DNA of 64,000 bases from Staphylococcus phage S6. Location of the stretch: sequence record LC680885.1, one strand, 5' to 3'. Made by a program: the position numbers and the translations under genes. The notes under the pieces are model-generated. The model did no database searches, was not told the DNA's origin, and worked only from the letters and a program-made list of their open reading frames with translations. This document shows, piece after piece, positions 8,575-62,128 of the stretch. The stretch's first letter is position 1. Every line of letters begins with the position of its first letter.

Positions 8575-10452
8575 ATGGAAAATAATACATTAAATTCGTA
8601 TATAAAGGATAATTTTAAATATTTTAAAGATGATAAATTAGAAATTGATAAAATATTTAAATTTAAAGATGATAAGACTAAAGAAAAATTTGAAATGTTT
8701 TTTAATGGAGTTATATATACATTGAAAAATTTAAGTTATAGTGAAGTATCTAAAATGTATAATGAAACAATTAAAGAGAAAAGTAATGTTCAAGGTAAAG
8801 CTGAAAGTTATATAAATTATTTAAATAATGAATTGAAAAATAGAGGACTAGATGAAGAAACTAAAAAACTTTATAAAGATTTATTAATGACTTTAAAAGC
8901 TGATTTGAAAAGATATAATGCTAATTTAGATGACAGCATTATAAATAAATTATTCAAAAATAAGAATATATCAATATCTTATTATAGTTTAATAGTACCT
9001 TATAATATTGCTAACGAAATTGAATTTAATAAAAACTATTATAGTTTTCTTGGATTAGATGATTTCACTAAATTCATAATCTTTCCATATTATCAACTTC
9101 TATATTTATCTAAAGGTAATCTAAAAAATATTCATATAAAGAATACAGACATAAATCTTCATAGTTACTTTATTGATATAATAAAGAAGTATATTAGAAA
9201 TTTAATAGATAATAAAGATTTAGATACATTAAAAGAATTATTAGACGTATTAACAAATGAGCACGAATATTTAAGATCTCTAAGACATACCGACTATAGA
9301 AAAGGTAATGGAAAAAATTTATTAGAGTTACTAATAGAAATGAATTTTAATGAATTTAAGGAAATATTATATGAAATGATATATATTATAATGAATAATA
9401 ACTTGAAAAAAGAATTAAAATCAGAAATGAATTATGATATATACAAGCATAGTATACTTTTAGTAAGTTTAATGAATAATGAGGTAGAAGAACATAGACA
9501 AACTAAATTTAATAGTAAATTTTTAATAGAGAGTAATAATACAATTAGAGCAACTGCTATTTCAGATTCATACGGTAAAAATGAGTACTACCAAAATAAC
9601 TTATTAGGTCACTATATTAATGATCTATATGTAGATAAAAATAAAATAAATAAATTTAAAAGAGTTAATAAAGTTAGAAGTTTTAAATCTTTTATTTATT
9701 TAACTAACCAAAGATGTATTATCGGTGGTGAGAAATATTATAAATACTTGTATAAATATTTATTTGATCCAAGTAATTTAACTAGAGAAGAGTTTGAAGT
9801 ATCTACATTATTAATTAAATTAATAACTTGTAAATCTAGTAATCAATTAAAGAAAGTTATGGAAAATGCTAAAACTGACTCTGTATTAAATAATATTTTA
9901 TTTGAAAATGAAATTAGTGATATAATTAAAATTGGTATACAGATGAATATTAATACTATATTCAATAAAAAAGGTTTAAGTAAAATTAATACAGTTGATT
10001 TAACTGTAGGAAATATTGTAAATCCTTTGTTATATAATAAAGCAAATGATTATGAAGAACAAACAGAAATCATTGATTCAGTATTTAAAAATTTTACTTA
10101 TGATATAGATATCAATTTTGATAAATATTATTATAAAGATTTAAATGAATATTTTGAAAATAAATTAAATTTAGGTCTTCTAAAAGAATCAAATATAGAT
10201 ATTAGTATTAATATTAATTATAATAAAATTGCAAAAACTATTGTAAATAATATTAAAGATAAGCTTAGAGGAAAATATCATTTTGAAAGGAATGAATTTA
10301 TTATTACTTACGATAAGATGAATATTACTCGTTTAACCACTACAGAATTTTGTAATGGTTTATGTGAATATTTAAGTAAATACTTCCCAGAAGAAGCTAA
10401 AAAGTTAAATAAGAGTTTTAGAGCTGAAATTGTAAATACAATGTTTAGATAA
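8575..10452 (+). CDS. hypothetical protein (about 625 aa; start taken at the second ATG)
   Basis: Long ORF. The first ATG at 8563 directly abuts the AAGGAG ribosome binding site with no spacer, so the ATG at 8575 is preferred. Lys/Asn/Tyr-rich with no recognisable motifs. Confidence 0.5.
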   Translation: MENNTLNSYIKDNFKYFKDDKLEIDKIFKFKDDKTKEKFEMFFNGVIYTLKNLSYSEVSKMYNETIKEKSNVQGKAESYINYLNNELKNRGLDEETKKLYKDLLMTLKADLKRYNANLDDSIINKLFKNKNISISYYSLIVPYNIANEIEFNKNYYSFLGLDDFTKFIIFPYYQLLYLSKGNLKNIHIKNTDINLHSYFIDIIKKYIRNLIDNKDLDTLKELLDVLTNEHEYLRSLRHTDYRKGNGKNLLELLIEMNFNEFKEILYEMIYIIMNNNLKKELKSEMNYDIYKHSILLVSLMNNEVEEHRQTKFNSKFLIESNNTIRATAISDSYGKNEYYQNNLLGHYINDLYVDKNKINKFKRVNKVRSFKSFIYLTNQRCIIGGEKYYKYLYKYLFDPSNLTREEFEVSTLLIKLITCKSSNQLKKVMENAKTDSVLNNILFENEISDIIKIGIQMNINTIFNKKGLSKINTVDLTVGNIVNPLLYNKANDYEEQTEIIDSVFKNFTYDIDINFDKYYYKDLNEYFENKLNLGLLKESNIDISININYNKIAKTIVNNIKDKLRGKYHFERNEFIITYDKMNITRLTTTEFCNGLCEYLSKYFPEEAKKLNKSFRAEIVNTMFR

Positions 10453-19838: not shown

Positions 19839-20053
19839 TGTTCGAGGAAAGTAAAGTACCATTTTCATTTATTTATAAAGAAACTAAATACTTCTTACAC
19901 AGAAGAAATATTAAGAATTTCCCTAATGGAGATTCTGAATTCTTATTGTATGGAGATGAAAATGGGAAGTCATTCATAATAGAAGAAAGTAAATTAGAAA
20001 ACTTAATTGAACAACATGAAGTTGAAGTATCTTACGAAGAAGATATTATTTAA
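19838..20053 (+). CDS. hypothetical small protein
   Basis: Start overlaps the upstream stop (TAATG). AAGGAAGAAGGAA ribosome binding site. Confidence 0.4.
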   Translation: MFEESKVPFSFIYKETKYFLHRRNIKNFPNGDSEFLLYGDENGKSFIIEESKLENLIEQHEVEVSYEEDII

Positions 20054-20056
20054 ATA

Positions 20057-20103
20057 TATATTATTAAATTGAGGTAATGACATACAATTTGTCATTACCT
20101 CTA
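20057..20103 (+). promoter_or_regulatory. TATATATTATTAA box followed by GAGGTAA...TTACCTC hairpin (element family E)
   Basis: ATATATATTATTAAATTGAGGTAATGAC, loop, GTCATTACCTC, then TAATATATT. Lies upstream of the lipoprotein gene. Confidence 0.45.
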
Positions 20104-20134
20104 ATATATTAAACAATCAAAGGAGAAAACGATC

Positions 20135-20518
20135 ATGAAGAAATTTTTAGTATTACCATTATTATTCGTTTTATTATTAACAGGGTGCTCTCAAGCTGAT
20201 AAAGTTAGTCAGAATATGTCTGAAGAGTCAGATAATTTTAATGTAGTTAGAAAAGTAACTGTCATTAATGCAATTAAAAATGACATAATATTCCAAATGT
20301 CTGGACGTATGTCTATTAAAGCAGATAATGAGGATAACCAATTAGAAATAGTTGTAGAAAATGAAGATGGCAAATATCAGAAACATATCATTGGTTTATC
20401 TGATAATGTTTCATATACTGTTGAAGATGTTACAACTAAAAATGTAAGTAAATATCAATATGAAATTAATTATAATCCTAAAATGTGGATCCCTGCAAAA
20501 CCAGATTATAAAGATTAA
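20135..20518 (+). CDS. lipoprotein (signal peptide with LTGC lipobox)
   Basis: MKKFLVLPLLFVLLLTGCSQ is a classic Gram-positive type II signal peptide. AAAGGAGAAAA ribosome binding site. Confidence 0.6.
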   Translation: MKKFLVLPLLFVLLLTGCSQADKVSQNMSEESDNFNVVRKVTVINAIKNDIIFQMSGRMSIKADNEDNQLEIVVENEDGKYQKHIIGLSDNVSYTVEDVTTKNVSKYQYEINYNPKMWIPAKPDYKD

Positions 20519-20543
20519 TATAATAGAATGGAGAGTATGATTT

Positions 20544-20840
20544 ATGTCTAAGAAAAAGAAATTAGAAAAAAGACTTAATGTAAGAATTAATCAAGAACAA
20601 AAGAAAGCTATTTTAAAACGTGAAGATATCGATAGAATGGATTTTGAGTTCATTACATTAGATAAAGAGAAACATGATGAAGAAGAAAAATTTGATATCA
20701 AAGTAAAATCTAACGATAAGTTTTCTCTAATTATCATTATTAAATTCTTTTCTAAATTGTTGAATTTTAGTATTAAAAGAGATAAGAAAAAAGAAGATAT
20801 AAAAGACGGTAATGAAGATTCTAATTTAGATAAAGAATAA
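20544..20840 (+). CDS. hypothetical Lys/Glu-rich protein
   Basis: ORF with GGAGAG ribosome binding site. Highly charged, with a hydrophobic segment IIIIKFFSKLL. Confidence 0.45.
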   Translation: MSKKKKLEKRLNVRINQEQKKAILKREDIDRMDFEFITLDKEKHDEEEKFDIKVKSNDKFSLIIIIKFFSKLLNFSIKRDKKKEDIKDGNEDSNLDKE

Positions 20841-20847
20841 TAAAAAT

Positions 20848-20894
20848 GCCATAATACACTTAAATTGTGTATTATGGCAAATTATTTATTTTTC
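20848..20894. terminator. bidirectional terminator between convergent genes
   Basis: Stem GCCATAATACAC / GTGTATTATGGC. T-runs follow on both strands: AAATTATTTATTTTTC on plus and ATTTTTATTATTC on minus. Confidence 0.65.
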
Positions 20895-21188
20895 AGGTTT
20901 AAAACGGTCTTTAAGTCTAGGATATAGACGTAGATGCGCTTTACGAGTAGGATCTGTAACAACAATTTGATTTGTTCTAGGATTTCTACGTTTACGCATA
21001 TCTTCAGGTTTAACTTCAAGGACACCAATTTCAGGGATAATAGTTTTAGTTTGATCAGCATCATTTGCAGATTCAACAATTATTTCTATCATCTCATTAT
21101 AAGCATCAACTAGTTCTCTTTGTGTTAATCCAGTACGTCTAGACCATTCTCTAAAGAAGTGTTTTTGATCTTGAATTTGATTTAGCAT
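20886..21188 (-). CDS. HU/IHF-family (TF1-like) DNA-binding protein
   Basis: IPEIGVLEVKPEDMRKRRNPRTNQIVVTDPTRKAHLRLYPRLKDRF resembles the HU arm [28 protein letters not shown]...F.AGKALKD. This is the only minus-strand gene in the 0-44 kb block. Confidence 0.65.
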   Translation of the reverse strand: MLNQIQDQKHFFREWSRRTGLTQRELVDAYNEMIEIIVESANDADQTKTIIPEIGVLEVKPEDMRKRRNPRTNQIVVTDPTRKAHLRLYPRLKDRFKPEK

Positions 21189-21249
21189 TTTATTAGTTCC
21201 TTTCCATATAATATATTTTTAATTTTTTTAGAAAATTGTTAATATTTTA

Positions 21250-21279
21250 CTAGCTTTTTTCTAAATTTTATGATATAAT
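21250..21279 (+). promoter_or_regulatory. promoter: CTAGCTTTTTT-N13-TGaTATAAT (extended -10)
   Basis: Same box and spacing as at 4175. Lies about 100 nt upstream of the RNAP beta N-terminal gene, in a 190-bp divergent intergenic region. The minus-strand HU gene has an ATATATTATATGG box 25 nt upstream of its start. Confidence 0.45.
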
Positions 21280-21379
21280 ATTGTTATGGAATTTCATAGT
21301 TGTAAAAAAATAATTTTTTGCAATAACTTAAATTTTTATATGGTTTCGAATTTTTAATTATAAGGAGAGTCAGATATCG

Positions 21380-23002
21380 TTGGGTAATTATTTAAGAAAA
21401 ATTACGAAGAATATACAAGATGAGGTCAGTACAAAAGAGTCATTTAATGAGGATGTAATATACTTTAGGGAGAATGAAAACCTAGAAGATATTATATCTG
21501 ATATTTACAAATCAGTAGAATTTATTAAAGGCGTAAAATTCATTGATTGTAAAGTTGTTCCTCCAAGTGAAGTTTATGAGTACAATCAAATGACAGACAA
21601 ACAATTTAAAGCAAGAGATTTTAGAAAAATCAACGTAGAAGAATCAAAACTATTAGAAGTTCAAATTACTGTAGAATTTGAATCAGCTGAAGGGGAAAAA
21701 GAATTATACACACATAAATTAGATTTCCCTGAACTTATAGAAGGTCAGTATTATTATATTAATGATAATAAGTTCTTCCCTATCTTACAATTAGCTGATA
21801 CTGAATTCTATAAACCTAAAGCAAGTACAGTAGTAATGAAAAACTTATTACAACCATTATCAGTAAATGGTTCTAAAAAAGATGAACTTATTGATGATGA
21901 TAAGAAAATGCCTAAGAAGTTAAGAGGTAGAACATTATACTTAGAAGTATTTAATAAAAATAAACCTGTTCCAGCATTTTTATTCTTTATTGCTAAAATG
22001 GGTCTAGATGAAACATTTGAATTCTTAGATATTAAAGAATATTGTGAATTAGTAGATACCAACGATGAAAAAGATGATGAACACTACTATTTTAGAATTA
22101 ATAATAAAATAACTATTCAAGTTGATAAAGAATGGTTAGATCAAGACGATAGATATAGAACTTCTATGGTCTTATGTATTAAAGATTTATTTAAAGGTAT
22201 GAGAGCAGGATTAGATAAAGTATATGATAAAGAATTCTGGCTTAAGAATTTAGGATCTGTATTTAGTGGTTCTACTAACGTTGACACTAAAATTGAAAAA
22301 TCTAATTCTATGATTTTATCATTTGATAGAATTTTAGATAGTCGTACTAAAAATATTTCTAGATTAGATCCAGAAGATAAAGAATCAACTTATCATGTAG
22401 TTAAATACATGTTTAAAAACTTTGATAATCTTAATTTATTAGATAATACAGATTTAGCTAATAAACGTTTAAGAGTATTAGAATACTTAACTTATCCACT
22501 GAATAGAAAGAACTCTGATACATCTTATCGTATGATTAATTTCACAGATAAGAAACGTACAATTAAAAATCTTAAAGGATTATTCTCAGGTGTACCTCGT
22601 GATTTCTTATTAAAAACTATAGGAACATCTGAAGGAATTAGATATTCCAATGCAGTTAATACAATTGACTTATTTACTAGAATTCTTAAAATGACTAAAG
22701 CAGGTCCACAAACTGCTGTTGATACTAGTAAACCATCTATTAGAACTATTAATATCAATAATACTTATTTCGGTAGAATTGATTTAATAGCAACATCTTC
22801 AAACAATCCAGGTATTACACGTACATTAACACCATTCTGTGAGGTTAAAGATCCTGGTGAGAATGGTTCATTCTATTTTGAAAATAAACCTAACATCAGA
22901 GAAAATATTGACACAGATAATTTAGATAAACTAGAGAAAGAATCTGAAGACAATGAAGTTGTATTAGATATTAAAGAAATTGTAGAAGAGGATGACGAAT
23001 AA
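21380..23002 (+). CDS. multisubunit RNA polymerase beta subunit, N-terminal portion (putative; TTG start)
   Basis: C-terminal end LKMTKAGPQT...TYFGRIDLIATSSNNPGITRTL aligns with the beta fork/Rif-region KRRISALGPGG...[20 protein letters not shown]. Ends where the 5704 beta C-terminal fragment begins. Stop overlaps the beta-prime gene start by 1 nt. Confidence 0.45.
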   Translation: MGNYLRKITKNIQDEVSTKESFNEDVIYFRENENLEDIISDIYKSVEFIKGVKFIDCKVVPPSEVYEYNQMTDKQFKARDFRKINVEESKLLEVQITVEFESAEGEKELYTHKLDFPELIEGQYYYINDNKFFPILQLADTEFYKPKASTVVMKNLLQPLSVNGSKKDELIDDDKKMPKKLRGRTLYLEVFNKNKPVPAFLFFIAKMGLDETFEFLDIKEYCELVDTNDEKDDEHYYFRINNKITIQVDKEWLDQDDRYRTSMVLCIKDLFKGMRAGLDKVYDKEFWLKNLGSVFSGSTNVDTKIEKSNSMILSFDRILDSRTKNISRLDPEDKESTYHVVKYMFKNFDNLNLLDNTDLANKRLRVLEYLTYPLNRKNSDTSYRMINFTDKKRTIKNLKGLFSGVPRDFLLKTIGTSEGIRYSNAVNTIDLFTRILKMTKAGPQTAVDTSKPSIRTININNTYFGRIDLIATSSNNPGITRTLTPFCEVKDPGENGSFYFENKPNIRENIDTDNLDKLEKESEDNEVVLDIKEIVEEDDE

Positions 23003-24312
23003 TGGCTAGATTTTTACTTAAGAATAAAGACTTATCAAAATTACCAGTAGTAACAAATCATGAATCAATTGATAAGAAAGGTGATTTCACTGAAGACGGT
23101 ATCTTCAGTGAGAAAATCTTTGGACCTGATTCAGATGTAGATAATATTACAAATGAAGCTATAGTTTATTTAGGTAATAACTATATTATTACACCTTTAG
23201 GATATGACAGAATTAAAAAATTAATAGGTAGAAAAAGATTTGCTGAAATTATTAGTTCTGAAAAACCTATTGATGAAAATGGTAATGTAATTGAACCAGA
23301 AGATGACCATAATTCATATATTGGTTTAGTTGAATTTAGAAAGAACTTCTTAAAGATTCTTAAAGAAGAAGTTAAACGTGATAAACGTAAAACTAAAGAT
23401 TACAATAGAGTTGTTCAATGGTATTTAAATGGAACATTATTCCAAAATTATGTAACTGTATTTAGTCCTAAATTAAGACCGGCTACAGTTAATAAAGCAA
23501 CTAAGACATTTAGACATTCAGAAATTAATAAAGAATTTAATTTATTAATTGCTCATAGTAATAGTCTTAAAGAATTAGATGAACATTATACAGATGATTC
23601 AGTTGAACTACAAAAGTTAAACCTACTTAATAAAATTCAAGATGACAACATGAATATCTATGATCGTATTATCAATGAAAACATTAAAGGTAAAATGGGT
23701 ACTATTCGTAAATTAATTATGGGTAGTCGTGTAGGATATTCAGCTCGTTCAGTAATTGTTCCAGCTCCTGATTTAAAATTAAATGAAATTAGAATGAATT
23801 ATACAATCTTCTTAGAAATATACAAACCACTATTAGCTAATTTAATGTATGTAACGGAAAATATTCCATTACCTAAAGCAGAAGAAATATTAGGTAGAGC
23901 TTTAGATAACTTTAATCCTAAAGTATATAAATATATGAAAGAATTAGTTAACAAAACTGAAGGTGGAATGAGAGTAATTTTGAACCGAAATCCATCTATC
24001 TCAGAATCATCAGTTCAAATATTAAAAATTAAAGATATCATTAGTGATATTGACTCAGCTGTAGTAGGTATTAGTAATAATATACTTGCAGGTATGGGTG
24101 CTGACTATGATGGAGACACATTGAATATTATAGCTCTCTTCTCAGAAGAGCAATATGATATGTTAAAAGTACAAGATCCAGTCAATCAATTAATATCATA
24201 TAATGATGGTCTATTTAATAGAACTTATTCACTTAATAAAGACTCACAGATTGCAGTTTATTTATTAAATAATCCTAAATCAAAAGATGTAAGTATAAAA
24301 GCTAGTAAATAG
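23002..24312 (+). CDS. multisubunit RNA polymerase beta-prime subunit, N-terminal portion (split subunit, lacks zinc-finger cysteines)
   Basis: TEDGIFSEKIFGP resembles beta-prime ERDGLFCARIFGP. ILNRNPSISESSVQ resembles LLNRAPTLHRLGIQ. ADYDGDTLNI matches the catalytic NADFDGDQM. The ORF ends shortly after the catalytic loop. Confidence 0.75.
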   Translation: MARFLLKNKDLSKLPVVTNHESIDKKGDFTEDGIFSEKIFGPDSDVDNITNEAIVYLGNNYIITPLGYDRIKKLIGRKRFAEIISSEKPIDENGNVIEPEDDHNSYIGLVEFRKNFLKILKEEVKRDKRKTKDYNRVVQWYLNGTLFQNYVTVFSPKLRPATVNKATKTFRHSEINKEFNLLIAHSNSLKELDEHYTDDSVELQKLNLLNKIQDDNMNIYDRIINENIKGKMGTIRKLIMGSRVGYSARSVIVPAPDLKLNEIRMNYTIFLEIYKPLLANLMYVTENIPLPKAEEILGRALDNFNPKVYKYMKELVNKTEGGMRVILNRNPSISESSVQILKIKDIISDIDSAVVGISNNILAGMGADYDGDTLNIIALFSEEQYDMLKVQDPVNQLISYNDGLFNRTYSLNKDSQIAVYLLNNPKSKDVSIKASK

Positions 24313-24320
24313 ATTTTTTA

Positions 24321-24356
24321 GAATAACGGTCTTATCAGATCGTTATTCTTATTAAA
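24321..24356 (+). terminator. hairpin terminator (weak T-tail)
   Basis: Stem GAATAACGGTC / GATCGTTATTC, followed by TTATTAAAT. Confidence 0.35.
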
Positions 24357-24380
24357 TAAATATGACTGGAGACATTGACC

Positions 24381-25013
24381 ATGAACAAAAGACAAAGAAA
24401 GAAATTAGAGAAGAAAAAATTAGAAGAACAAAGTAACGAAAAAATTATAGATTTGCCAAAATTAAAAGAAGAAAAGGATGAAGTTAAAATGAATAAAGAA
24501 GTTAAAAGAGAAGGATCTTACAAGAAATTAACTAAGGAACAAGTACATTATATTGCAGAATTAATTGACAAAGGACACGGAAACACTTATATTTTAAAAG
24601 AACTTAAAGCTAAGTTTGGTATTGACCGTAAATCACATTCAATCACACATATTAGACGTGGTGAACATCCTACATTTAAAGCACTTACAGATGACAATTA
24701 TCACTTTGCTGAAGTGGGATATCCTACATTTAATGAATACAAAAAGATTTTACGTGGAGAAGTTAAACCTAAAAGTAAAACACGTGTAAAAGCTGAAGAA
24801 AAGGTTAATAAAGTAAAAGAATCACCAGTAGTAGAAAAAGTATCTAATGTTACAGAAGAAAAAGTAGAACAAGTAAAAGAAAAAATGAGTAATATTCAAA
24901 AAGATAAAGAAACTGGTAAAGAATATCGTGATAAAGAAAGTATTCATAAAGCAGGTAAACCTCAAGAAACTATCTTTGATAAGATTATCAAACGTGTTTT
25001 AAATATTTTATAA
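24381..25013 (+). CDS. Lys-rich protein with putative DNA-binding domain; paralog of 1390..1998
   Basis: GGAGA ribosome binding site 9 nt before the ATG (the ORF track starts at TTG 24375). Shares the IDKG..N..IL......F...I..[VI]RRG...P....L..DNY.F...GYPT segment with the 1390 ORF. Basic Lys/Glu-rich termini. Confidence 0.5.
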   Translation: MNKRQRKKLEKKKLEEQSNEKIIDLPKLKEEKDEVKMNKEVKREGSYKKLTKEQVHYIAELIDKGHGNTYILKELKAKFGIDRKSHSITHIRRGEHPTFKALTDDNYHFAEVGYPTFNEYKKILRGEVKPKSKTRVKAEEKVNKVKESPVVEKVSNVTEEKVEQVKEKMSNIQKDKETGKEYRDKESIHKAGKPQETIFDKIIKRVLNIL

Positions 25014-25031
25014 TAGAAAAGATGATAAGAA

Positions 25032-26084
25032 ATGTCCAAATATGATTTAACTTTATATCATCATTTAAAACAAGAAGTAAAACCATGTAGATTAACAACT
25101 TCACAGGATGAGACAATGATACGTTGTCCTTTCTGTGGAGATTCTAAAAAGTCTAAAAGTTCAACACATTTATATATACAAAATAGAACTCCATTTAAAT
25201 ATTTCTGTCAAAGATGTAATGCTTCTGGAGTTATGAGTAATAAAGTTTTAGCTATGTTAAATAGTGGTAATGTAGAAATAAATAGTTATATTAACAATCA
25301 ATATAATGAATATATTTCTAATATGAATAAAAAATATGGCAAATCTTTTATCAATAGAAATACAAAAGAATTAAAATACTACCCAAATAAATATACCGAT
25401 TTAGAAATAAGCAAGATTAATTATATTAATGAAAGATTGGGTATTAACATAGATGAGAAGGATATTGAATTATATAAGATTATTTTAAATATAGAAGATT
25501 TTTATAAGAATAATGAATTTGATATAGATAATCAATATCAAATAAATAATCTTAATAATAATTATTTTAGTTATATGTTGAACGATAAGAACACTATTAA
25601 TTGTAGATTAATGAATAGTGACACATTTGGGGCTAATGGGAAGAAACATTTTAAACAAAAAATATTTAAGAATTTAGCTGATGAAAGTACTAGATTTTAT
25701 TCAATTAAGAATGAATTAAGATTGGATAGAAGAGTATATAATATTCATATAGCTGAAGGATTCTTTGATATATTGGGGATATTTAATCATGTGTATAATA
25801 AAGAAATAAATGACAATGATATATTTATAGCTAATAACGGAAAAGGTTATAAATTTGTATTAAATTATCTAAATAGTTTAGGTATACTTAATATGAATAT
25901 AAATATTTATTCCGATAGAGATGTTAAAATTACTGATTATCGCAGTAAGAGAATGCTCGGTAATTCGCTACCAGTAATTTTAAATGATGCTAATATATAT
26001 TATAATGAATTTGAAGATGAGAAAGATTTTGGGGTAACAAAAGATAAAATAAAATTATCAGAACCAATTAAGTTTAATCAATAA
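25032..26084 (+). CDS. DNA primase-like protein (DnaG-type zinc ribbon plus putative TOPRIM)
   Basis: N-terminal CPFCGDSKKSKSSTHLYI...FKYFCQRCNASG resembles the DnaG zinc-binding CPFH.EKTPSF....YHCFGCG. Downstream acidic motifs HIAEGFFDILG and YSDRDVKITD are consistent with TOPRIM. Confidence 0.45.
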   Translation: MSKYDLTLYHHLKQEVKPCRLTTSQDETMIRCPFCGDSKKSKSSTHLYIQNRTPFKYFCQRCNASGVMSNKVLAMLNSGNVEINSYINNQYNEYISNMNKKYGKSFINRNTKELKYYPNKYTDLEISKINYINERLGINIDEKDIELYKIILNIEDFYKNNEFDIDNQYQINNLNNNYFSYMLNDKNTINCRLMNSDTFGANGKKHFKQKIFKNLADESTRFYSIKNELRLDRRVYNIHIAEGFFDILGIFNHVYNKEINDNDIFIANNGKGYKFVLNYLNSLGILNMNINIYSDRDVKITDYRSKRMLGNSLPVILNDANIYYNEFEDEKDFGVTKDKIKLSEPIKFNQ

Positions 26085-43915: not shown

Positions 43916-44048
43916 TAAAAATATAAACTAATTTATATTAATAATTTTTATAATGTATCATTCACTTAGTCGCAAATATTTATTTATTTTAAGAACATAA
44001 ATTTTATATCAAATAATATAGAATTTTTAAAAAGGAGAATTTAATTTT

Positions 44049-44633: not shown

Positions 44634-44685
44634 ATCCCCTAACCTTATTAATTTAAGGTTAGGGGATTAATATTGTATTTTTTAT
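44634..44685. terminator. bidirectional terminator at the plus/minus block junction
   Basis: Stem ATCCCCTAACCTT / AAGGTTAGGGGAT with an 8-nt loop, followed by TAATATTGTATTTTTTAT. It is the most GC-rich hairpin in the window. Confidence 0.7.
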
Positions 44686-45140
44686 CTGAAATAATTAGTA
44701 TTATCAGTCATTTTTCTTCCAAAAGCATCTAGTCCATCTAATGGATTAACTTTATCTCCAGTTGTTTTAAAATCATCTCCACCATAAGTGCCGCTAAAAT
44801 TTGTATCTACGCCTTTAGATAATTCTTCACTCATTTTATTTAAGTGTCTTACTCTTTCAACTTTTCTCTGATAATAGTCTTCTGCTTCTTGTTGAGATTT
44901 TAATCTATTTTCATCAATAGTTTCGTTATCTTTTAATTTAGTTACTGGAGTAAAACCATCCATAACTACATAAAATTTATCAATTTGATCCTGATAAATA
45001 AAAGGTATTTTAGTTTTTAAATGTAAAGTAGTTGGTTCATCTTCATACTGTAATGTCTCATATTCAAGTATATTACCTTCTTTATCGACAGTGACAGATA
45101 TATCCATCATAATTTCTTCTTTTTTCTTTTCTTCTGACAA
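44682..45140 (-). CDS. hypothetical protein (structural block)
   Basis: 152-aa ORF. First gene of the minus-strand block, reading toward the terminator. Confidence 0.45.
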   Translation of the reverse strand: MSEEKKKEEIMMDISVTVDKEGNILEYETLQYEDEPTTLHLKTKIPFIYQDQIDKFYVVMDGFTPVTKLKDNETIDENRLKSQQEAEDYYQRKVERVRHLNKMSEELSKGVDTNFSGTYGGDDFKTTGDKVNPLDGLDAFGRKMTDNTNYFR

Positions 45141-45164
45141 GTCTTTTCATCTCTCTTTCATATT

Positions 45165-48161
45165 TTAGTTTCTTCCATAAATATAAGAGTTTAGGAACCA
45201 AGCATTTCCTTTTTGACCTGGTTTAACACGAGCTCGTATAGCTACTGAAGCTATAGATTGTTGTGGTATTCCTAAATCAACAATAATCTCTTTAAATTTA
45301 GTTTTAGTAACACTAGTAGAAGTGTCTTTAGGTATTGATACAGTTTTATCAAAAATTACACCATTCTGTTCGTTAAAAGAGTCTACTTTAATATCTATAC
45401 CACATTGTGGAGTAGCATACCATATACCAATGTGTAACCATCTAGTTTCATGTTGACCGTATAATGTCATAGCACGTCTAAAGTAGCTACCTGTAGTCTT
45501 ATCACTAAACATAAATGCATTACCGACATTTTTAAATCTAGGAGTACCATTAGACATTAAATCTTGCACACCAGGTTCTGAACGTACATAAGCTGTAGTG
45601 AATCGTGGCATACCATTGTATACTAAATAACCACCATCAGGGCGTTTGATAGTGATACCGCCTTTAACTTCTCCCATAGCGTCTAACATAGTTTGAACAA
45701 CTATATTTTTAGACATTAAATTAGTAATAGCAGCTTCTTTAATAGTAGCTCTACCATTAGAAATTATTACATCACCATCATTAATATCAACCATCTTAGA
45801 TTTTAATTTAATACTATTAGGATCAATATCAAAAGAAGACAATTTATCATTAGAAGAAGATGACATAGTAATACCATCAGCTAATAAAGATAATGCAGAA
45901 CCCATTTTTTCTATTTTAGTTTTATCAGCATTGTAAGTTTCTTTAGTAACACTTAAAGCGATATTATTTTCTGTTTGACTAATTCTACTTTCCATATTAG
46001 TAATTCTAGCATTACTATCTTTAATAGATGGTTGCCAAGCAGTAGATTTATTACCTTCTTCAACTTTTAATCCTTCAATATCAACAGACATTGGGAAAGT
46101 TCCATTTTTATTAATAATCATATTAATTAATGTGTCAACTGTAAATGAATCATTAGGAATAAATACTACTTCTATTAATGTTAAAGCAGAAGTATCATCA
46201 AACGTAATATTACGTGAATCTTGACCTTTAGCAACACCATTAACAAAAGTATTAGTTATAGTTGAATTAGGTATACTAATATCAACATTAGTTAATGTAC
46301 CAGTTTTCTTTTCTAAGTTAAAGCTTAATATGTGTTCACGTCTATTTCTAACTTTATCTAATTTAAATTTAATACCTTGACCGTTAGCAGTTAAAGCTGC
46401 ATTAAGTTCTCCGTATTCTAAATAATTAGTTTTAGTTAAAGTTACAGAACCAATTGGTGTAATATTAGCAATGCTAATTAAGTTCATACCGCCAACTGTA
46501 ATTTTACCGGCTTCTGTAACAGCATAACCATTAGAAATACTGTCAATAGCTTTTTGAATAGCATCTTTAATATTCGATTGAGCTTCATTATATCTCAAGT
46601 AGTTAGTATTAAATTGAGCTATTTCTTCTTGAGTAGCTACACCGTCACTAATAGTATTAGTGATATCTTGTATTAGTATATTATATTTCTCATTAAATAA
46701 ATCATATTTATTTTTTAAATCTGTTTTTACTGAATTAGCCATCATTTTATTAGGATAAAGTGTATTAAAGATTTTATCTATTTCAGCTTTATCTTTATCA
46801 ATAACATTTTTCTGTTTATCAATAGCAATTCTTTCAGCATTAGATATAATACCATCTTTGAAAGCTTCAGTAACTGTATCACCTAAACCTACAGCATTCT
46901 TTTCGATATTAGTTATTTTACCATTAATGGTTTTATTATAGTTTTCTAACATATTATCATAATCTTCAGGTGCAGATGTCCAGTCAGAAGACACACTACC
47001 TCGTTCAACTTTAACTCTAGCAATATCAAATGTACCACTTAATCCATTAAGATCAGTGTCTACTCCAAGAAGTAATTTAGTATTATTTCTTCCAGTTAGT
47101 GTTTGTTTATATACGAATGAATATCTATGCCATTCTTCATCAATATCTAAATACTTTTCAGCGATTGGTGTAGAATAATTACCAGAAGGATCAATGAAGT
47201 AACAATAATCAAGTCTATTAAATGTATCTGATCTAAAATCAAATGAAATAGTATAAGTCTCATTGTATTCTAGTTTAAAACCATTATAACTTTGAGCACC
47301 TACTTGACCTTCAATACCTTCAGTATTAATTGTAAAATAACTTTTACCGTCACTATCTTGTCCAAAAGTTAAAGCATTTGGGTTTGATGAATTTAAAGCA
47401 TCCGGTTTTAACAACCAATTACCTGAAACAGCTAAAGAATTTTCTAATAAGTTTTTACCACCAATAACAATACCGTCAATTTCAGATTTAGAAACTGTTT
47501 GTTCTATTAAGTCTGCAAATTGAGATATCTGACTTTCAAATTCAGTTACTTTATTATTAACCGTATCTATATCAGCTCTAGTAACTGTATCTTGTAGAAC
47601 TCTAGCTGTTTGTTCTCTAAATGATTCTAATTTAGTAATACTATCATTAATTTCATTAAGAGTATAATCAGTAGCTATACTCTTAATGGACTCTGCAGTT
47701 TGTTCTACTTTAGTACTTAAATATTGTATAGATGATTCATATTTATTAACTTTAGACATTGCTATTGATAGGGACTCTTCATTAGATGAAACTCTTCCAT
47801 TTAAAGAATCTAGATTACCTTTAATATCAGAATCCCATCCACCTTCAGCAACGCTATCAATATAGTCAATACTTAGTTTTTGGTATTTTCTTAATTCAGT
47901 TTTTAATGTATCAAGTGTAACATAGTTAGATAAATCTAAATCAATATCGTGACTACCATCTAAATTTCTTAATTTTTCTATTAAATTATCATTTTCTTTA
48001 TCTAAAGAATCAATACTTGTATTTAAGACATTAATTCTATTTTTATTATCTTCTGACAGATTTTTAATGCTATCTTGTTCTTGTAATAAAGAATTGAATT
48101 TCGATTTAATAGAATTTATTTCTTCATTTATTTGAAGAAGATTTTTTTCTTTATCTTCCAT
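45165..48161 (-). CDS. tail fibre / receptor-binding protein (coiled-coil N-terminus plus beta-rich modules)
   Basis: 998 aa. N-terminal 230 aa rich in heptad-like segments. Contains IGGKNLLENS...VKVERGSVSSDWTSAPEDY and LKVEEGNKSTAWQPS modules, shared with the 2662-aa giant. Confidence 0.55.
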   Translation of the reverse strand: MEDKEKNLLQINEEINSIKSKFNSLLQEQDSIKNLSEDNKNRINVLNTSIDSLDKENDNLIEKLRNLDGSHDIDLDLSNYVTLDTLKTELRKYQKLSIDYIDSVAEGGWDSDIKGNLDSLNGRVSSNEESLSIAMSKVNKYESSIQYLSTKVEQTAESIKSIATDYTLNEINDSITKLESFREQTARVLQDTVTRADIDTVNNKVTEFESQISQFADLIEQTVSKSEIDGIVIGGKNLLENSLAVSGNWLLKPDALNSSNPNALTFGQDSDGKSYFTINTEGIEGQVGAQSYNGFKLEYNETYTISFDFRSDTFNRLDYCYFIDPSGNYSTPIAEKYLDIDEEWHRYSFVYKQTLTGRNNTKLLLGVDTDLNGLSGTFDIARVKVERGSVSSDWTSAPEDYDNMLENYNKTINGKITNIEKNAVGLGDTVTEAFKDGIISNAERIAIDKQKNVIDKDKAEIDKIFNTLYPNKMMANSVKTDLKNKYDLFNEKYNILIQDITNTISDGVATQEEIAQFNTNYLRYNEAQSNIKDAIQKAIDSISNGYAVTEAGKITVGGMNLISIANITPIGSVTLTKTNYLEYGELNAALTANGQGIKFKLDKVRNRREHILSFNLEKKTGTLTNVDISIPNSTITNTFVNGVAKGQDSRNITFDDTSALTLIEVVFIPNDSFTVDTLINMIINKNGTFPMSVDIEGLKVEEGNKSTAWQPSIKDSNARITNMESRISQTENNIALSVTKETYNADKTKIEKMGSALSLLADGITMSSSSNDKLSSFDIDPNSIKLKSKMVDINDGDVIISNGRATIKEAAITNLMSKNIVVQTMLDAMGEVKGGITIKRPDGGYLVYNGMPRFTTAYVRSEPGVQDLMSNGTPRFKNVGNAFMFSDKTTGSYFRRAMTLYGQHETRWLHIGIWYATPQCGIDIKVDSFNEQNGVIFDKTVSIPKDTSTSVTKTKFKEIIVDLGIPQQSIASVAIRARVKPGQKGNAWFLNSYIYGRN

Positions 48162-48223
48162 TATTAAATTTCACCAAACTTTCATTTTTATTTAAATAAT
48201 AAGTTGATGTTTTATGATTTTAA

Positions 48224-48730
48224 TTAAACGAATAATGAAAGATTGATTGCATTTGTATAAGGATCTGATAATTTATATACATAAATATTAGTAATCATTA
48301 AATCTTTCATTTCAATTTCATTATTTTTCATCAATTCATCTAACTCTGTATCTTCTTTAATAGAATCAAAAATAGCTGGGCCGATATACTTTAATACTTC
48401 TTTGTCTAATTTGTCAGCTACATCTTCTTCATATTCTCTTAAGTAAGCTTCATACTCATCATTATTTCCCTGAAAACTTTGTTTATTTTTAGCATGCAAA
48501 TCTTCATCATCTAATTTAATAACAAATGTTGGTTTTTTAACATCAATATGTTTTTCTGCCGCTTCAGATCTAAATTTAAAGTTTTCAGATTTATTAATAG
48601 TATCACGAATAATATCAACTGTATTCTCTAAATCGATATAGTTCATAATGTTATTTCTAATTCTCATTATTAACTGCAAATCTCTAATATCTTTTTCTTC
48701 ATTAACTAATACATCTTTATTATTTCTCAT
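48224..48730 (-). CDS. hypothetical protein
   Basis: 168-aa ORF. Confidence 0.45.
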   Translation of the reverse strand: MRNNKDVLVNEEKDIRDLQLIMRIRNNIMNYIDLENTVDIIRDTINKSENFKFRSEAAEKHIDVKKPTFVIKLDDEDLHAKNKQSFQGNNDEYEAYLREYEEDVADKLDKEVLKYIGPAIFDSIKEDTELDELMKNNEIEMKDLMITNIYVYKLSDPYTNAINLSLFV

Positions 48731-48732
48731 TT

Positions 48733-49359
48733 TTATTTATTCTCCATTCTTTTCTCTTTTATTTTTTCTATTAATGTTTTATACTTGTCTAATAATACTT
48801 TATCCATTCTACCTTTAGATTCTTCTAGATCATCTTTTACATATTTAATATGTATGAATGTTTTATCTTTAAAATCACTAGAATACTTCTTAAGAGAAGT
48901 TACTTTAAATATCTGAGCATCATCTTTCCAAAACATTTCATTCATAACATCAAATGTAGTTTTTTGGAAATTATCAACATCAGGAGTATTTGTTCTCTTA
49001 ATTAAACCTAAAAGTTTAAATAATATAAGTTTTATTGAATCAGTATTATTACAAGGATTTCTTTCTGTAATTAATTCAAATTCAATAGGTTTTTCAAAAT
49101 TATTTTTAATGATATCTTTTATAAAATCTTCTTTTAATTCTTCTTTCATTCTTTTCTTTAGTTCTTTTTTATATGTGTGTAAAGGATCATAAGTTCTCAT
49201 TCCGCTTTTTCTATGTCTAAGATATTGATAAACTTCATGATCATCTATAGAAATAATAATTTCATTATCATTTACACTTTTATATTCAATATTACAATTT
49301 TTAACTTCTTCAATTTTATCTAATATCTTTTTAGGTACTTCTTTTTTCTTTTTAGGCAT
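48733..49359 (-). CDS. hypothetical basic protein
   Basis: 208-aa Lys-rich ORF. Confidence 0.45.
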   Translation of the reverse strand: MPKKKKEVPKKILDKIEEVKNCNIEYKSVNDNEIIISIDDHEVYQYLRHRKSGMRTYDPLHTYKKELKKRMKEELKEDFIKDIIKNNFEKPIEFELITERNPCNNTDSIKLILFKLLGLIKRTNTPDVDNFQKTTFDVMNEMFWKDDAQIFKVTSLKKYSSDFKDKTFIHIKYVKDDLEESKGRMDKVLLDKYKTLIEKIKEKRMENK

Positions 49360-49418
49360 TTTTCATTCAATTCCTTTAGCAAAGTGTATATTTATAATAA
49401 TAACGTTATATGTATATT

Positions 49419-49469
49419 AAAATTTTTTATAAAATAAACGGTAACATTCAATTTAATGAATGTTACCGT
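49419..49469 (-). terminator. minus-strand terminator after the holin-like gene
   Basis: Stem ACGGTAACATTCA / TGAATGTTACCGT. On the minus strand it is followed by TTATTTTATAAAAAATTTT. Confidence 0.5.
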
Positions 49470-49477
49470 AAAATATA

Positions 49478-50017
49478 TTAATTTGATTGATCTCCAGCAG
49501 ATCCTCCACCTAAGATTTCAGGATTGTAATTAGCATCAGCTCTAACATCTGATTCTATTAATTCTTCATCATCTTCAGTAGAAACTTGTTGTTCTAAACC
49601 TTCACTCTCAGGGATTTCTGGATCCTTTGACAAGTTTGTAGTTTCTTGGTTGCTCTCTTGCTCCAAAAAAGGTTTCACTGGAGGAAGAACCGTACCGTCA
49701 TAGTCCATTGCTTGAAGAGATTTTTCATTATTTGTAGTAGGTCTACTTTTAGCTAAGTTACGTTCAGAGTCAGCTATTCCTTCAGTAGTACTATCTACAA
49801 AACGACCAACTAAACTAGATATAACCCCTGCTAAAACTTGAACAATACTTAAAACATTAGTTTCAGTGTCACCAGAAACTTCTCCGCCAAAAGCACGAAT
49901 TAAGAAAATAACTACGTTGACTAATTGAACTAATAGGGCTGCTGTCCATGCTTTATTTTTAAATCTAACTAATACGTTAATCTGTTTATCTTTACCAATT
50001 TTTAAATTTTTTCCCAA
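49478..50017 (-). CDS. holin-like membrane protein (SPP1/phage_holin_1-like N-terminus) with long acidic C-terminal extension
   Basis: N-terminus KQINVLVRFKNKAWTAALLVQLVNVVIFLIRAFGG resembles SPP1-family holins (D.GT.IRT..L.LAL.NQ.L...G). Roughly 100 extra acidic C-terminal residues. Confidence 0.35.
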   Translation of the reverse strand: MGKNLKIGKDKQINVLVRFKNKAWTAALLVQLVNVVIFLIRAFGGEVSGDTETNVLSIVQVLAGVISSLVGRFVDSTTEGIADSERNLAKSRPTTNNEKSLQAMDYDGTVLPPVKPFLEQESNQETTNLSKDPEIPESEGLEQQVSTEDDEELIESDVRADANYNPEILGGGSAGDQSN

Positions 50018-50056
50018 TTTAATATTTCTCCTTTTTATTAAAATAAATATTTAAAA

Positions 50057-50614
50057 CTATCCTCCAAATATTCTTCTAAGTATATCTAAGATTACTGAAG
50101 GAGCTAATATCAAAGACACTATATTGACAAATAAATTTCTTTTAAAAGTTTTATTTTCTTTTTCATCATTAGAACCGTCTTCAATCTTCTTAAACTCAAT
50201 TTCAAAGTCTTCTATATTAAGTTTACTATCTAAACCCAATCTTAAATCTTGTATATCACTAGTTATTTTTCTTTCAACTTGTTCAACATTTTGATTTAAT
50301 TCTTGTTTAACAGATTGTATTTGTGATTCTAATTCATAATGTCTTCTTTTTCTTTCTTCTTCTTCAATTTTTCTATTTTCTCTATCTTCTTTCATTTCTT
50401 TTCTAATTTCTTCAGTATTTTTACCCATGCTTTCAAGTAATACTTCTACACGTACTAAAGTGTTACTTGTTTTTTGACTCTCGGATTTAACTTCATCTAT
50501 TTTCTTATCAAACTTCTCTTCAATTTCTTCTTTAAGTGAATTATTTGACTTTAGTAATTCTAATTCAGTTATAGATTTACTATTTTCATACAATCTTCTT
50601 TTATCTTCTTCCAT
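50057..50614 (-). CDS. coiled-coil protein with C-terminal TM anchor
   Basis: Charged heptad-rich sequence ending in the hydrophobic NLFVNIVSLILAPSVILDIL. Confidence 0.45.
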   Translation of the reverse strand: MEEDKRRLYENSKSITELELLKSNNSLKEEIEEKFDKKIDEVKSESQKTSNTLVRVEVLLESMGKNTEEIRKEMKEDRENRKIEEEERKRRHYELESQIQSVKQELNQNVEQVERKITSDIQDLRLGLDSKLNIEDFEIEFKKIEDGSNDEKENKTFKRNLFVNIVSLILAPSVILDILRRIFGG

Positions 50615-51095
50615 TTATAATAGATTCCATTCTCATTTCAAGAATTGTAAATACTGCAAAGAAGAGATTTAGGAAAGAGATGATGATTTTTAATATTATA
50701 GTAGATTGCATACCAGCACTATCTAAAGATAGAATAGCGTATATTAAAAATAGAGCGAAGTTAATAAATGCACCTATAGTCATTAAAGGTTTTGTCATGA
50801 AATTATCCAAGAATAGGGAAGCGGCTAAAGCCAATCCTCCAATAATTAAAAATACTCCATATGTTTTTAAATCCATAAAATGAGAAATAGCCACATAAAT
50901 ATCTGATGTTCTATAAGCTTCTCTTGTTCTAAAAACAAATTGAAAACCATAAATTAAAGAATAAACAGCTAAGAAAATAGGAGTTATATAATATTTAAAT
51001 TGCTTAAGAAAATAATATAATTTGATGACTAAACTATTTGCTTCTTCAACACTTAGATTATCTTCTCTATCATTATTTTTATTATCGTCCGTCAT
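50601..51095 (-). CDS. membrane protein (4 TM)
   Basis: Four hydrophobic helices. Overlaps the downstream gene by 14 nt. Confidence 0.45.
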   Translation of the reverse strand: MTDDNKNNDREDNLSVEEANSLVIKLYYFLKQFKYYITPIFLAVYSLIYGFQFVFRTREAYRTSDIYVAISHFMDLKTYGVFLIIGGLALAASLFLDNFMTKPLMTIGAFINFALFLIYAILSLDSAGMQSTIILKIIISFLNLFFAVFTILEMRMESIINGRR

Positions 51096-51368
51096 AGTTA
51101 TTTTTCACATCCTATTCTTTTATTATAAATCTTTATTATAAACCTTTGTTCCTTTAATAGTCTTGATGAGTCCTATAAATTTTCGAGCAAAATAAAGTCC
51201 CTAACACTCAAATAAGAATGTTAGGGACTGTTTGAAGACTTTGCCAAAATTAAAAGAAAAAAGAATAAAGATAGACAAGAACAAAGAAATTGTATGAAAG
51301 ATATTTATGTAAATAACTTTCATATAAATATGTTCTATTTTTCTTTATTCAATTGATGCTGATAAGAA

Positions 51369-51785
51369 TTACTGGTTAGGTAAAGATCCACCTTGAGCTG
51401 TTGAAGGGTTTTCAGGATCTTCTTCTTGAGGATCTACTTCTGTAGCTCGACCAACGCCTTGAACTTCAGAATCTTCAACTGAATCTTCAACCATATGTTC
51501 TTCATCAATAGGATCGATTTCTTCAACTAATTCTTCACTACTATTGTGGGTTCCGCTTGTATACCATGTTTGAGATCCTCTAAAATCATTAGCTGGATCA
51601 TATGATGGATCCGTCACCCAATCACCATTATTAGAATTTTCTTCATTGAAAGCAATTTCATTTAAAATTTCTTCAACTAATGCTTTTAACCCATTGCCTT
51701 CAGAAACTTCTTCTAATTCCAATACTCCTTTAGCAACTAAGGTTGCATGAAAAGTTACAATAAAAGATTTTTTACTAAATTCCAT
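51369..51785 (-). CDS. hypothetical acidic protein
   Basis: 138-aa ORF. Confidence 0.4.
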   Translation of the reverse strand: MEFSKKSFIVTFHATLVAKGVLELEEVSEGNGLKALVEEILNEIAFNEENSNNGDWVTDPSYDPANDFRGSQTWYTSGTHNSSEELVEEIDPIDEEHMVEDSVEDSEVQGVGRATEVDPQEEDPENPSTAQGGSLPNQ

Positions 51786-51800
51786 AATATAAAATTCCTC

Positions 51801-52169
51801 CTATTTTCTATTAGCCATTAAAGCAGCTAATCTCTCTTGAAGCTCACGAATTTCTTTTTCTTCAGGAGTTTCTTCTGGTTCTTCTTTCTTATTAAAAGTT
51901 TCACCTGGTTTTTCAGCTAATCTAGGAGTAGCATTTTCATATTCTATTTTTAATTTTTCCATCTGTTCACGAATATTATGGTCTACAATAAATATTACAG
52001 ATTCTTTAGTTGAATCATTCATATTTCCTATAGAATAACCATAGAAATATCCTTCTTCATCTATATCTTGCATATTTATGATTAGCCAGAATCGACCATC
52101 AATTCTTTTTCCTCTTTCATCATACATATTTTTATGTGTTTCTACAAATGCCAATAAGAAAACCTCCAC
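51801..52169 (-). CDS. hypothetical protein
   Basis: 122-aa ORF. Confidence 0.4.
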   Translation of the reverse strand: MEVFLLAFVETHKNMYDERGKRIDGRFWLIINMQDIDEEGYFYGYSIGNMNDSTKESVIFIVDHNIREQMEKLKIEYENATPRLAEKPGETFNKKEEPEETPEEKEIRELQERLAALMANRK

Positions 52170-52215
52170 TATATTATTTTAATTTATAAATAATAGTTTA
52201 AAATAATATAGTTAG

Positions 52216-60204: not shown

Positions 60205-60258
60205 ATTTAATTCACCATCCTTTCATTTAATTGATATTAATGTGTTCCATGTCAATAA

Positions 60259-60681: not shown

Positions 60682-60798
60682 TTTTAGAAAACTCCTTTTA
60701 AATTGATATTTATAATATAAATTAAGTTATTATGGCATTTTAAAAAATTACTCAACATTTTATTTATTATGAAACTAATAGAAAGTGGGTAGAAATAT

Positions 60799-62061: not shown

Positions 62062-62081
62062 AAAAAAAAATCAAAATATTA

Positions 62082-62128
62082 GAGGTAACTATCAAATTAA
62101 TGATAGTTACCTCAATTTTATTATTTTA
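62082..62128. terminator. bidirectional terminator (GAGGTAA...TTACCTC hairpin)
   Basis: Stem GAGGTAACTATCA / TGATAGTTACCTC with a 6-nt loop, followed by AATTTTATTATTTTA. It lies between convergent genes. Confidence 0.6.

Follow-up and report, generated by a model that had tools for sequence, protein, structure and literature searches.

Split RNA polymerase genes of a Staphylococcus jumbo phage and their correspondence to the non-virion enzyme of phage AR9

Which RNA polymerase (RNAP) do the split subunit genes of Staphylococcus phage S6 encode? The stretch of DNA analysed (64,000 nucleotides of record LC680885.1, hereafter the window) carries two adjacent open reading frames (ORFs) and a third, distant one that a first-pass annotation had read from their motifs as fragments of a split, cysteine-less multisubunit RNAP, while holding that virion and non-virion enzymes could not be told apart from the sequence. 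The three ORFs are, with little room for doubt, the beta-N, beta-prime-N and beta-C subunits of an AR9-related non-virion RNAP (nvRNAP) of a Staphylococcus jumbo phage of the PALS_2/UFV_DC4/MarsHill clade. This reading is carried by what was observed here, namely the homology and orthology of the proteins, the positions at which the subunits are split, the preservation of the catalytic motifs, purifying selection on the genes and the sites of the promoter motifs. To our knowledge, AR9-like nvRNAPs are the minimal multisubunit RNAPs, with no alpha or omega subunit and with both beta and beta-prime split, and they are the only RNAPs we know of to recognise template-strand promoters, which requires uracil in the DNA. 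These enzymes free the phage from host transcription, which makes them relevant to S. aureus phage therapy, generalized transduction and rifampicin insensitivity.

The beta-N and beta-prime-N genes (Table 1) are joined by a minimal overlap. The TAA stop codon of beta-N (23000-23002) and the ATG of beta-prime-N (23002-23004) share one A at 23002, so that the overlap is exactly 1 nucleotide (nt; junction GAATAATGGCT, with TAATG at 23000-23004). Together with the GAGGA that lies inside the 3' end of beta-N, this arrangement suggests that the translation of the two genes may be coupled. In beta-prime-N, the motifs IFGP (amino acid (aa) 39), NRNPS (aa 328), ES (aa 335) and ADYDGD (aa 367-372) were located. 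The four-cysteine zinc finger expected after IFGP was not found, the 436-residue protein having 0 cysteines, and beta-prime-N is a beta-prime homologue, but a non-canonical one. A fork-loop-like segment, YFGRIDLIATSSNNPG, closes beta-N, in which aa 462-483 read TYFGRIDLIATSSNNPGITRTL, and beta-C carries NRSQM (aa 36), PLIQTGFE (aa 57), GGKGV (aa 372) and GEME (aa 586). The adjacency with its overlap, the landmarks of all three proteins, the missing zinc-finger cysteines and the fork/Rif-like end of beta-N had been described in the first-pass annotation and were found as described. Its placement of beta-C 15 kb away was right in that this is a separate, distant gene, but the distance needs correction: beta-C lies on the upstream side, with 13.5 kb between its end and the start of beta-N (15.7 kb from start to start).

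A Pfam search matched RNA_pol_Rpb1_2 to beta-prime-N (E = 3.2e-10; 40.9 bits, cut-off 25.3) and RNA_pol_Rpb2_6 to beta-C (E = 1.2e-9; 38.2 bits, cut-off 23.4). It gave zero matches for beta-N, and the identity of this subunit therefore rests on PHROGs, the PDB and the comparison with AR9. The PHROG RNA polymerase families were matched by beta-N at 3e-41 (PHROG 2943), by beta-prime-N at 8e-50 and by beta-C at 2.5e-104 (PHROG 3295). When all PDB sequences were searched, the top match of each ORF was a chain of the AR9 nvRNAP, 7S00. Beta-N aligned with chain c over aa 18-518 (1.6e-73), covering residues 13-493 of the 496 of gp105; beta-prime-N aligned with chain d of 7S00/7S01 over aa 21-424 (4e-69), reaching the last residue of gp270; and beta-C aligned with chain C (4.9e-143), covering residues 10-652 of the 665 of gp089. 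Because these alignments are essentially end to end, beta and beta-prime are cut at the same sites as in AR9. The beta split falls between the fork-loop region and the next conserved beta segment (gp105 + gp089 type), and the beta-prime split falls after the catalytic double-psi beta-barrel (gp270 + gp154 type), leaving DxDGD in the N-terminal part. The three proteins correspond one to one to their AR9 orthologues at 33-39% identity. Bacterial beta and beta-prime chains in the PDB gave weaker matches of 1e-8 to 1e-13; for beta-prime-N, the values were about 1e-13 for bacterial beta-prime chains and about 2e-12 for cyanobacterial gamma chains. With RpoB/RpoC-type Pfam matches, AR9 chains and reproduced motifs, the proposed split, cysteine-less multisubunit RNAP is upheld.

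The same proposal had pointed to phiKZ-like and AR9/PBS1-like phages alike, and here the evidence divides. Split nvRNAPs occur in phiKZ-like phages too, and beta-C matches phiKZ gp71 (7OGP chain C) at 1.4e-20, as might be expected if the fragments came from a nucleus-forming, thymine-DNA jumbo phage of that kind. However, the match of beta-C to AR9 at 5e-143 is far stronger, so that a phiKZ-type nvRNAP is not the closest relative. No phiKZ chain was among the matches in the PDB search with beta-N, and beta-N homologues at E<=1e-5 were confined to AR9/PBS1, BpSp, LPJP1, phiR1-37 and the Staphylococcus group. Furthermore, the order UvsX, beta-C, NAD ligase, minus-strand HU-like gene and beta-N is common to the window and AR9. 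Staphylococcal jumbo phage S6 has deoxyuridine (dU)-containing DNA, and the DNA of the MarsHill clade behaves as dU-DNA (bioRxiv 10.1101/2020.12.14.422802); sequence files write U as T. The probability of a phiKZ-like origin is accordingly negligible, and the AR9/PBS1 part of the proposal, which points to a group with uracil in its DNA, is the part that stands.

Two paralogous split beta/beta-prime sets are present in jumbo phages of the AR9 group (PMC7598289), and motifs alone cannot separate the virion from the non-virion set. The three ORFs might therefore be part of the RNAP packaged in the virion (vRNAP), the enzyme that enters the cell with the injected DNA and is responsible for early transcription. 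Reciprocal tblastn was run locally against AR9 nucleotides 60001-251042; no RNAP genes are annotated in the first 50 kb of AR9, and 50001-60000 lay outside the comparison. Beta-N returned AR9 83395-84834, the annotated non-virion beta-N (1.9e-73), beta-prime-N returned 227445-226384 and a second exon, the non-virion beta-prime-N (1.7e-55), and beta-C returned 73261-75174, the non-virion beta-C (1.8e-146). The AR9 virion paralogues appeared only at 3.9e-4 (beta-prime) and 6e-3 (beta). The distance between 1e-55 to 1e-146 on the one side and 4e-4/6e-3 on the other makes the type of enzyme decidable from sequence, contrary to what had been claimed, and assigns all three ORFs to the non-virion set. 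In addition, tblastx of all AR9 vRNAP gene regions and the sigma-like gp148 against the window gave nothing at E<=1e-2. The AR9 vRNAP has its beta-prime in three pieces and another beta split site (bioRxiv 10.1101/2020.12.14.422802, PMC7598289), whereas the splits in the window match the nvRNAP chains. Moreover, in the available part of the DC4 virion proteomics report, the RNAP subunit given as packaged is a different beta gene, UFVDC4_00067, and the orthologues of the three ORFs are not named (PMC10638138). A packaged enzyme is thus very unlikely.

The source of the window was established by tblastn and megablast against a phage collection, which identified a Staphylococcus jumbo phage. Beta-prime-N has 100% aa identity to its counterparts in PALS_2 and vB_SauM-UFV_DC4 and beta-N has 99.4%. 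The DNA is 98.7-98.8% identical to PALS_2/DC4 over 20000-26000 and 96.9% identical to PALS_2 over 1-24000, the window corresponding to roughly 59-123 kb of PALS_2. With 97-99% nt identity to these Staphylococcus jumbo phages, the jumbo-phage origin suggested by the first-pass annotation is secure, and the window is a distinct isolate of the published clade of PALS_2, DC4, MarsHill, Madawaska, Machias, SA1, LY01, AH12 and PB50. The genes have been described in this clade. The MarsHill record, which cites AR9, labels the orthologues "non-viral RNA polymerase beta subunit" and "beta-prime subunit", and the MarsHill paper identified all five viral and all five non-viral subunits; it also places the opening point of the genomes immediately upstream of the beta-N/beta-prime-N pair (bioRxiv 10.1101/2020.12.14.422802). 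The DC4 table lists UFVDC4_00159 (713 aa), _00178 (540 aa, 177264-178886) and _00179 (436 aa, 178886-180196) (PMC10638138); the lengths equal those of the window genes (713, 540 and 436 aa), and the shared coordinate 178886 is the same 1-nt overlap. The neighbours (UvsX, ligase, HU-like, primase) in the Staphylococcus jumbo relatives are also those of the window. Since the orthologues are already annotated and published in near-identical phages, the finding itself is already known. Compared with MarsHill, the closest genomes are annotated incompletely or in a misleading way: in PALS_2 (MN091626) and UFV_DC4 (MZ779063) the beta-N orthologue is labelled 'hypothetical protein', beta-prime-C is a 'delta subunit' in PALS_2, and the gp226 orthologue again bears the label 'hypothetical protein'.

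It was also considered that the ORFs could be decaying, non-functional RNAP remnants, or could have been recruited to a non-polymerase role, in a phage that relies on host RNAP. The lack of a zinc finger, of alpha and omega subunits and of any Pfam match for beta-N would agree with this, as would an extended -10-like sequence of sigma-70 type, TGATATAAT, at 21270-21278 upstream of beta-N. However, a sigma-70-type scan of this upstream region gave matches close to chance (10 vs 6.3±2.6 in this 24% GC DNA). The ORFs are full length, and DYDGD and the beta motifs are intact. Comparison with Machias gave ratios of nonsynonymous to synonymous substitution (dN/dS) of 0.095/0.843 = 0.11 for beta-N and 0.095/0.546 = 0.17 for beta-prime-N, indicating that both are under purifying selection. 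Furthermore, the AR9 enzyme, with the same zinc-less and alpha-less build, is catalytically active (PMC9209446, PMC7598289). It is exceedingly improbable that the ORFs are remnants.

As an AR9-type nvRNAP, the enzyme would require two further subunits. The window gave no match to the AR9 beta-prime-C (gp154) and sigma-like (gp226) proteins, whose best E values were 3.8 and 0.97, respectively. Orthologues of both are clear in all Staphylococcus jumbo phages, that of beta-prime-C in PALS_2, MarsHill and DC4 among them; in PALS_2 they lie at 211650-213398 (beta-prime-C) and 257081-258379 (gp226). The earlier expectation that a separate beta-prime C-terminal gene lies elsewhere is thus confirmed in the closest complete genomes. 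By analogy with AR9, beta-N, beta-prime-N and beta-C would assemble with beta-prime-C and the sigma-like subunit, both encoded far outside the window, into a five-subunit holoenzyme without alpha and omega, in which the DYDGD loop of beta-prime-N would hold the catalytic Mg2+. In the phage collection, homologues of beta-N and of gp226 were found in an identical set of 20 records (9 from Staphylococcus, 8 from Bacillus, 2 from Yersinia phiR1-37 and 1 from Listeria LPJP1). In the AR9 structure, beta-N and gp226 together form the promoter-binding pocket (PMC9209446), and their co-occurrence in the 20 records fits this joint pocket. A primase gene (25032-26084, +) lies two genes downstream of beta-prime-N in the window. 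In AR9 the primase is directly downstream of gp226, and the PALS_2 gp226 orthologue keeps its GroEL neighbour without the primase; these positions indicate a rearrangement that placed the primase beside the gene of a different nvRNAP subunit.

In the pocket of AR9, the template-strand -10 uracil stacks on Arg363 of beta-N, bonds with Lys375 and is sterically gauged by Val206 of gp226 (PMC9209446). Six beta-N proteins (window, Machias, LPJP1, AR9, BpSp and phiR1-37) were aligned. Arg363 is invariant among them and corresponds to R384 in the window. The PALS_2 gp226 orthologue keeps V206-I207-W208 (AR9 numbering), the dU-discriminating helix. At the position of Lys375, the non-staphylococcal phages have K, K, K and R and the Staphylococcus clade has N; at the position of Asn382, this clade has G. 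It seems, then, that the device that reads dU is conserved at its core and has changed at its rim in a clade-specific way.

The transcription of the RNAP genes was approached through AR9-type promoter motifs. A 13-mer early-promoter consensus, AAATATATATTAT, was derived from 23 annotated AR9 early promoters. With at most one mismatch allowed, 20 copies are present in the window, compared with 7.65±2.86 in shuffled sequences, and none of 100 shuffles reached 20. The 8-mer TATATTAT alone was not enriched (47 vs 42.4±6), so that only the full 13-mer is. One exact copy stands before beta-C (Table 1); the other exact copies are at 18308, 20052, 34137 and 38235 (+) and 62975 (-), and 14 further copies have one mismatch. 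The exact copies mostly lie 40-80 nt upstream of plus-strand ORFs in the 0-44 kb block. The 13-mer copies probably define a set of virion-RNAP transcription units. The copy at beta-C is consistent with early transcription of this gene by the injected virion RNAP, as is the case in AR9 (PMC7598289). The RNAP genes are presumably early, then, with at least beta-C expressed from this type of promoter, and the enzyme would go on to transcribe the late, structural genes without host RNAP. Together, beta-N and the sigma-like subunit would form the pocket that recognises AACA-N6-TW, as written for the non-template strand (template 3'-UUGU-5'). Assembly, timing, dU-specific template-strand recognition and host independence are all modelled on AR9 in this scheme and would apply here by analogy.

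The late motif was examined upstream of those genes of the structural block (44-64 kb) with an upstream space of 40 nt or more, which number 10. AACA-N6-TW was found 42-55 nt before the start of 5 of the 10, compared with 0.41 in shuffled upstream regions, and none of 20000 shuffles reached 5. In the whole window, both strands counted, the motif is rarer than in dinucleotide shuffles (110 vs 192±12.6), and a spacer of 6 gives the lowest count among spacers 0-18. Avoidance of spurious promoters was considered as a cause and was rejected because the AACA tetramer is not depleted (observed-to-expected ratio 0.99 under a second-order Markov model) and because the AR9 genome, in which the promoter is experimentally defined and which served as a positive control, has no dip at spacer 6 (606 vs 599). 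The low count is left as a possible fluctuation. The HU/IHF-like DNA-binding gene (20886-21188, -) has an early-type 13-mer with 1 mismatch upstream (21208-21220, -) and also two copies of the late motif (21229-21240 and 21274-21285, -); the presence of both promoter types resembles the 'continuously expressed' class of AR9.

Several points weigh against the interpretation of the three ORFs as parts of a working AR9-type enzyme. First, the 36-60 nt window used for the late motif was set after the late-block data had been viewed. It was therefore applied a priori to an independent sequence, 44-94 kb of MarsHill, which does not overlap the window and for which annotated starts were used; only this test was a priori. 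The motif was found in 5 of 17 upstream regions, compared with 0.70 in shuffles (P=4e-4), in all cases at 45-50 nt and ending in TA. The genes concerned are those for the prohead protease, the tape measure and three hypothetical proteins. The authors of the MarsHill paper reported that MEME had revealed no late-promoter signal (bioRxiv 10.1101/2020.12.14.422802). Second, the 191-nt gap before beta-N (21189-21379) contains no AR9-type early promoter at up to 3 mismatches, the best candidate having 4, and alignment of this region with the AR9 and LPJP1 intergenic regions revealed only a degenerate TATAT core in common. Third, the bidirectional hairpin at 20847-20879, one of 2 such hairpins found where 0.1 were expected, would separate the upstream plus-strand unit from the HU-like gene and the beta-N/beta-prime-N pair and would block read-through. 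Fourth, the beta-prime-C and sigma-like genes lie outside the window, and their presence in this genome is presumed from relatives with 97-99% nt identity. Fifth, two of the three AR9 beta-N uracil contacts are altered (K375 to N, N382 to G), and the promoter specificity could differ in detail. Finally, timing, assembly and promoter use in the clade are extrapolated from AR9 across 33-39% identity.

Table 1. Features of the window that bear on the RNA polymerase genes and their putative promoters
Feature	Position	Strand	Remarks
beta-N, nvRNAP subunit	21380-23002	+	540 aa, TTG start, orthologue of AR9 gp105
beta-prime-N, nvRNAP subunit	23002-24312	+	436 aa, orthologue of AR9 gp270
beta-C, nvRNAP subunit	5704-7845	+	713 aa, orthologue of AR9 gp089
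Shine-Dalgarno AAGGAGAG for the beta-N TTG start	21362-21369	+	read directly from the sequence; same start and ribosome-binding site in the MarsHill annotation
Shine-Dalgarno GAGGA for beta-prime-N	22988-22992	+	inside the beta-N 3' end; ribosome-binding site annotated at the equivalent MarsHill place
AR9-type early (virion-RNAP) promoter-like 13-mer AAATATATATTAT	5621-5633	+	exact consensus match, 71 nt upstream of the beta-C start
bidirectional terminator-like hairpin	20847-20879	.	13-bp stem, T tracts on both strands; MarsHill terminator annotated equivalently
late-promoter-like AACA-N6-TW	43994-44005	+	55 nt upstream of ORF 44049; putative target of the polymerase
late-promoter-like AACATCAACTTA	48200-48211	-	50 nt upstream of the 998-aa tail-fibre gene 45165-48161 (-)
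late-promoter-like AACAAAGGTTTA	51139-51150	-	55 nt upstream of ORF 50601-51095 (-)
late-promoter-like AACACATTAATA	60235-60246	-	42 nt upstream of the 2662-aa tail-fibre gene 52216-60204 (-)
late-promoter-like AACATTTTATTT	60754-60765	+	45 nt upstream of ORF 60799-62061, homologous to AR9 212233-213477

In the remainder of the window, no tRNAs and no Rfam families, group I introns included, were found. At about 44.6 kb the coding strand switches and the GC skew changes sign, and a minus-strand structural and lysis block (44650-64000) begins, in which lie the two tail-fibre genes of 998 and 2662 aa as well as genes for a RusA-like resolvase and a holin. Of the 82 window ORFs of at least 80 aa, only 11 have AR9 homologues at E<=1e-5. 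The ORF at 20135-20518 (+) encodes 127 aa with a lipoprotein-like N-terminus, MKKFLVLPLLFVLLLTGC, and has about 84% nt identity to a gene of the unrelated, roughly 140-kb Staphylococcus myophages phiSA_BS1, phiSA_BS2 and JDF86, whose counterpart is named 'recombination directionality factor' in RefSeq. The similarity suggests that phage lineages have exchanged the gene horizontally, and its product might be a superinfection-exclusion lipoprotein.

The value of the analysis for the window is confirmatory: it is placed firmly in a published clade, and the motif-only reading had named the enzyme correctly. Two small additions are offered, namely the non-virion assignment of the subunits by orthology and the positioning of the AR9 late motif upstream of structural genes, the latter adding a little to the literature and being a matter of motif placement and not of transcript mapping. 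A broader proposal, put forward tentatively and with slightly less than even confidence, is that the clade uses AR9-type late promoters (AACA-N6-TA, 42-55 nt before the start) together with a remodelled beta-N pocket (K375 to N, N382 to G) and a coupled beta-N/beta-prime-N pair, possibly as an aid to assembly without alpha. If this is true, the clade would offer a naturally occurring variant with which to dissect how dU promoters in the template strand are recognised, in a phage that infects a pathogen.

Outside the Staphylococcus clade, the closest known system is the nvRNAP of AR9/PBS1, composed of gp105 (beta-N), gp089 (beta-C), gp270 (beta-prime-N), gp154 (beta-prime-C) and the sigma-like gp226 (PDB 7S00, 7S01, 7UM0, 7UM1). 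The window shares with AR9 the catalytic motifs, Arg363, the early 13-mer and the placement of the late AACA-N6-TW. However, about 140 kb separate the beta-N gene from the beta-prime-N gene in AR9, whereas those of the window are adjacent and overlap by 1 nt. AR9 beta-prime-N carries an intron with an HNH endonuclease, and the window gene is intron-free. In AR9, Ugi lies between the HU-like gene and beta-N; no homologue of AR9 Ugi was found in the window. Unlike that of AR9, beta-N of the window has an acidic C-terminal extension of about 20 aa.

Within the Staphylococcus clade and its relatives, the differences concern mainly insertions and spacing. The beta-C and beta-prime-N genes of the window are uninterrupted, whereas two insertions, one of about 360 and one of about 175 bp (8198-8559 and 9197-9373 of the MarsHill stretch analysed), interrupt MarsHill beta-C, which is annotated as a join of four pieces. 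In Machias, a 368-bp insertion (2798-3167 of the stretch analysed) falls in beta-prime-N exactly between G366 and A367, before ADYDGD; the AR9 intron lies a few codons downstream of this site. AH12, PB50 and LY01 also have a beta-prime-N insertion, as judged by two-piece matches, the exact site having been mapped in Machias only, and in PB50 a homing endonuclease is annotated within it. The active-site codons are a repeated target of mobile elements. The intron-free RNAP genes of this isolate and the two diverged pocket residues are increments over the published clade. The 1-nt overlap is kept in MarsHill and DC4, and Machias has a 3-nt gap in its place. Listeria LPJP1 shares the adjacency of beta-N and beta-prime-N, with a 96-aa ORF between them, and in AR9, BpSp and phiR1-37 they are not adjacent.

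The nvRNAP of phiKZ (gp55, gp68, gp71-73, gp74, gp123; PDB 7OGP) is likewise an alpha-less, split, five-subunit enzyme made during infection. It is much more distant, and phiKZ has thymine DNA, a phage nucleus and a differing promoter logic (PMC7598289). Bacterial RNAP shares the double-psi beta-barrel core, NADFDGD corresponding to ADYDGD, NRAPTLH to NRNPSIS and GNKGV to GGKGV, with GEME in common, and the position of the beta-prime split is that of cyanobacteria (gamma + beta-prime; PMC7598289). Unlike bacterial RNAP, the phage enzyme has no N-terminal zinc finger, no alpha or omega and a beta that is also split, and in enzymes of this type the template strand is read by a sigma-like subunit that looks non-homologous to its bacterial counterpart (PMC9209446).

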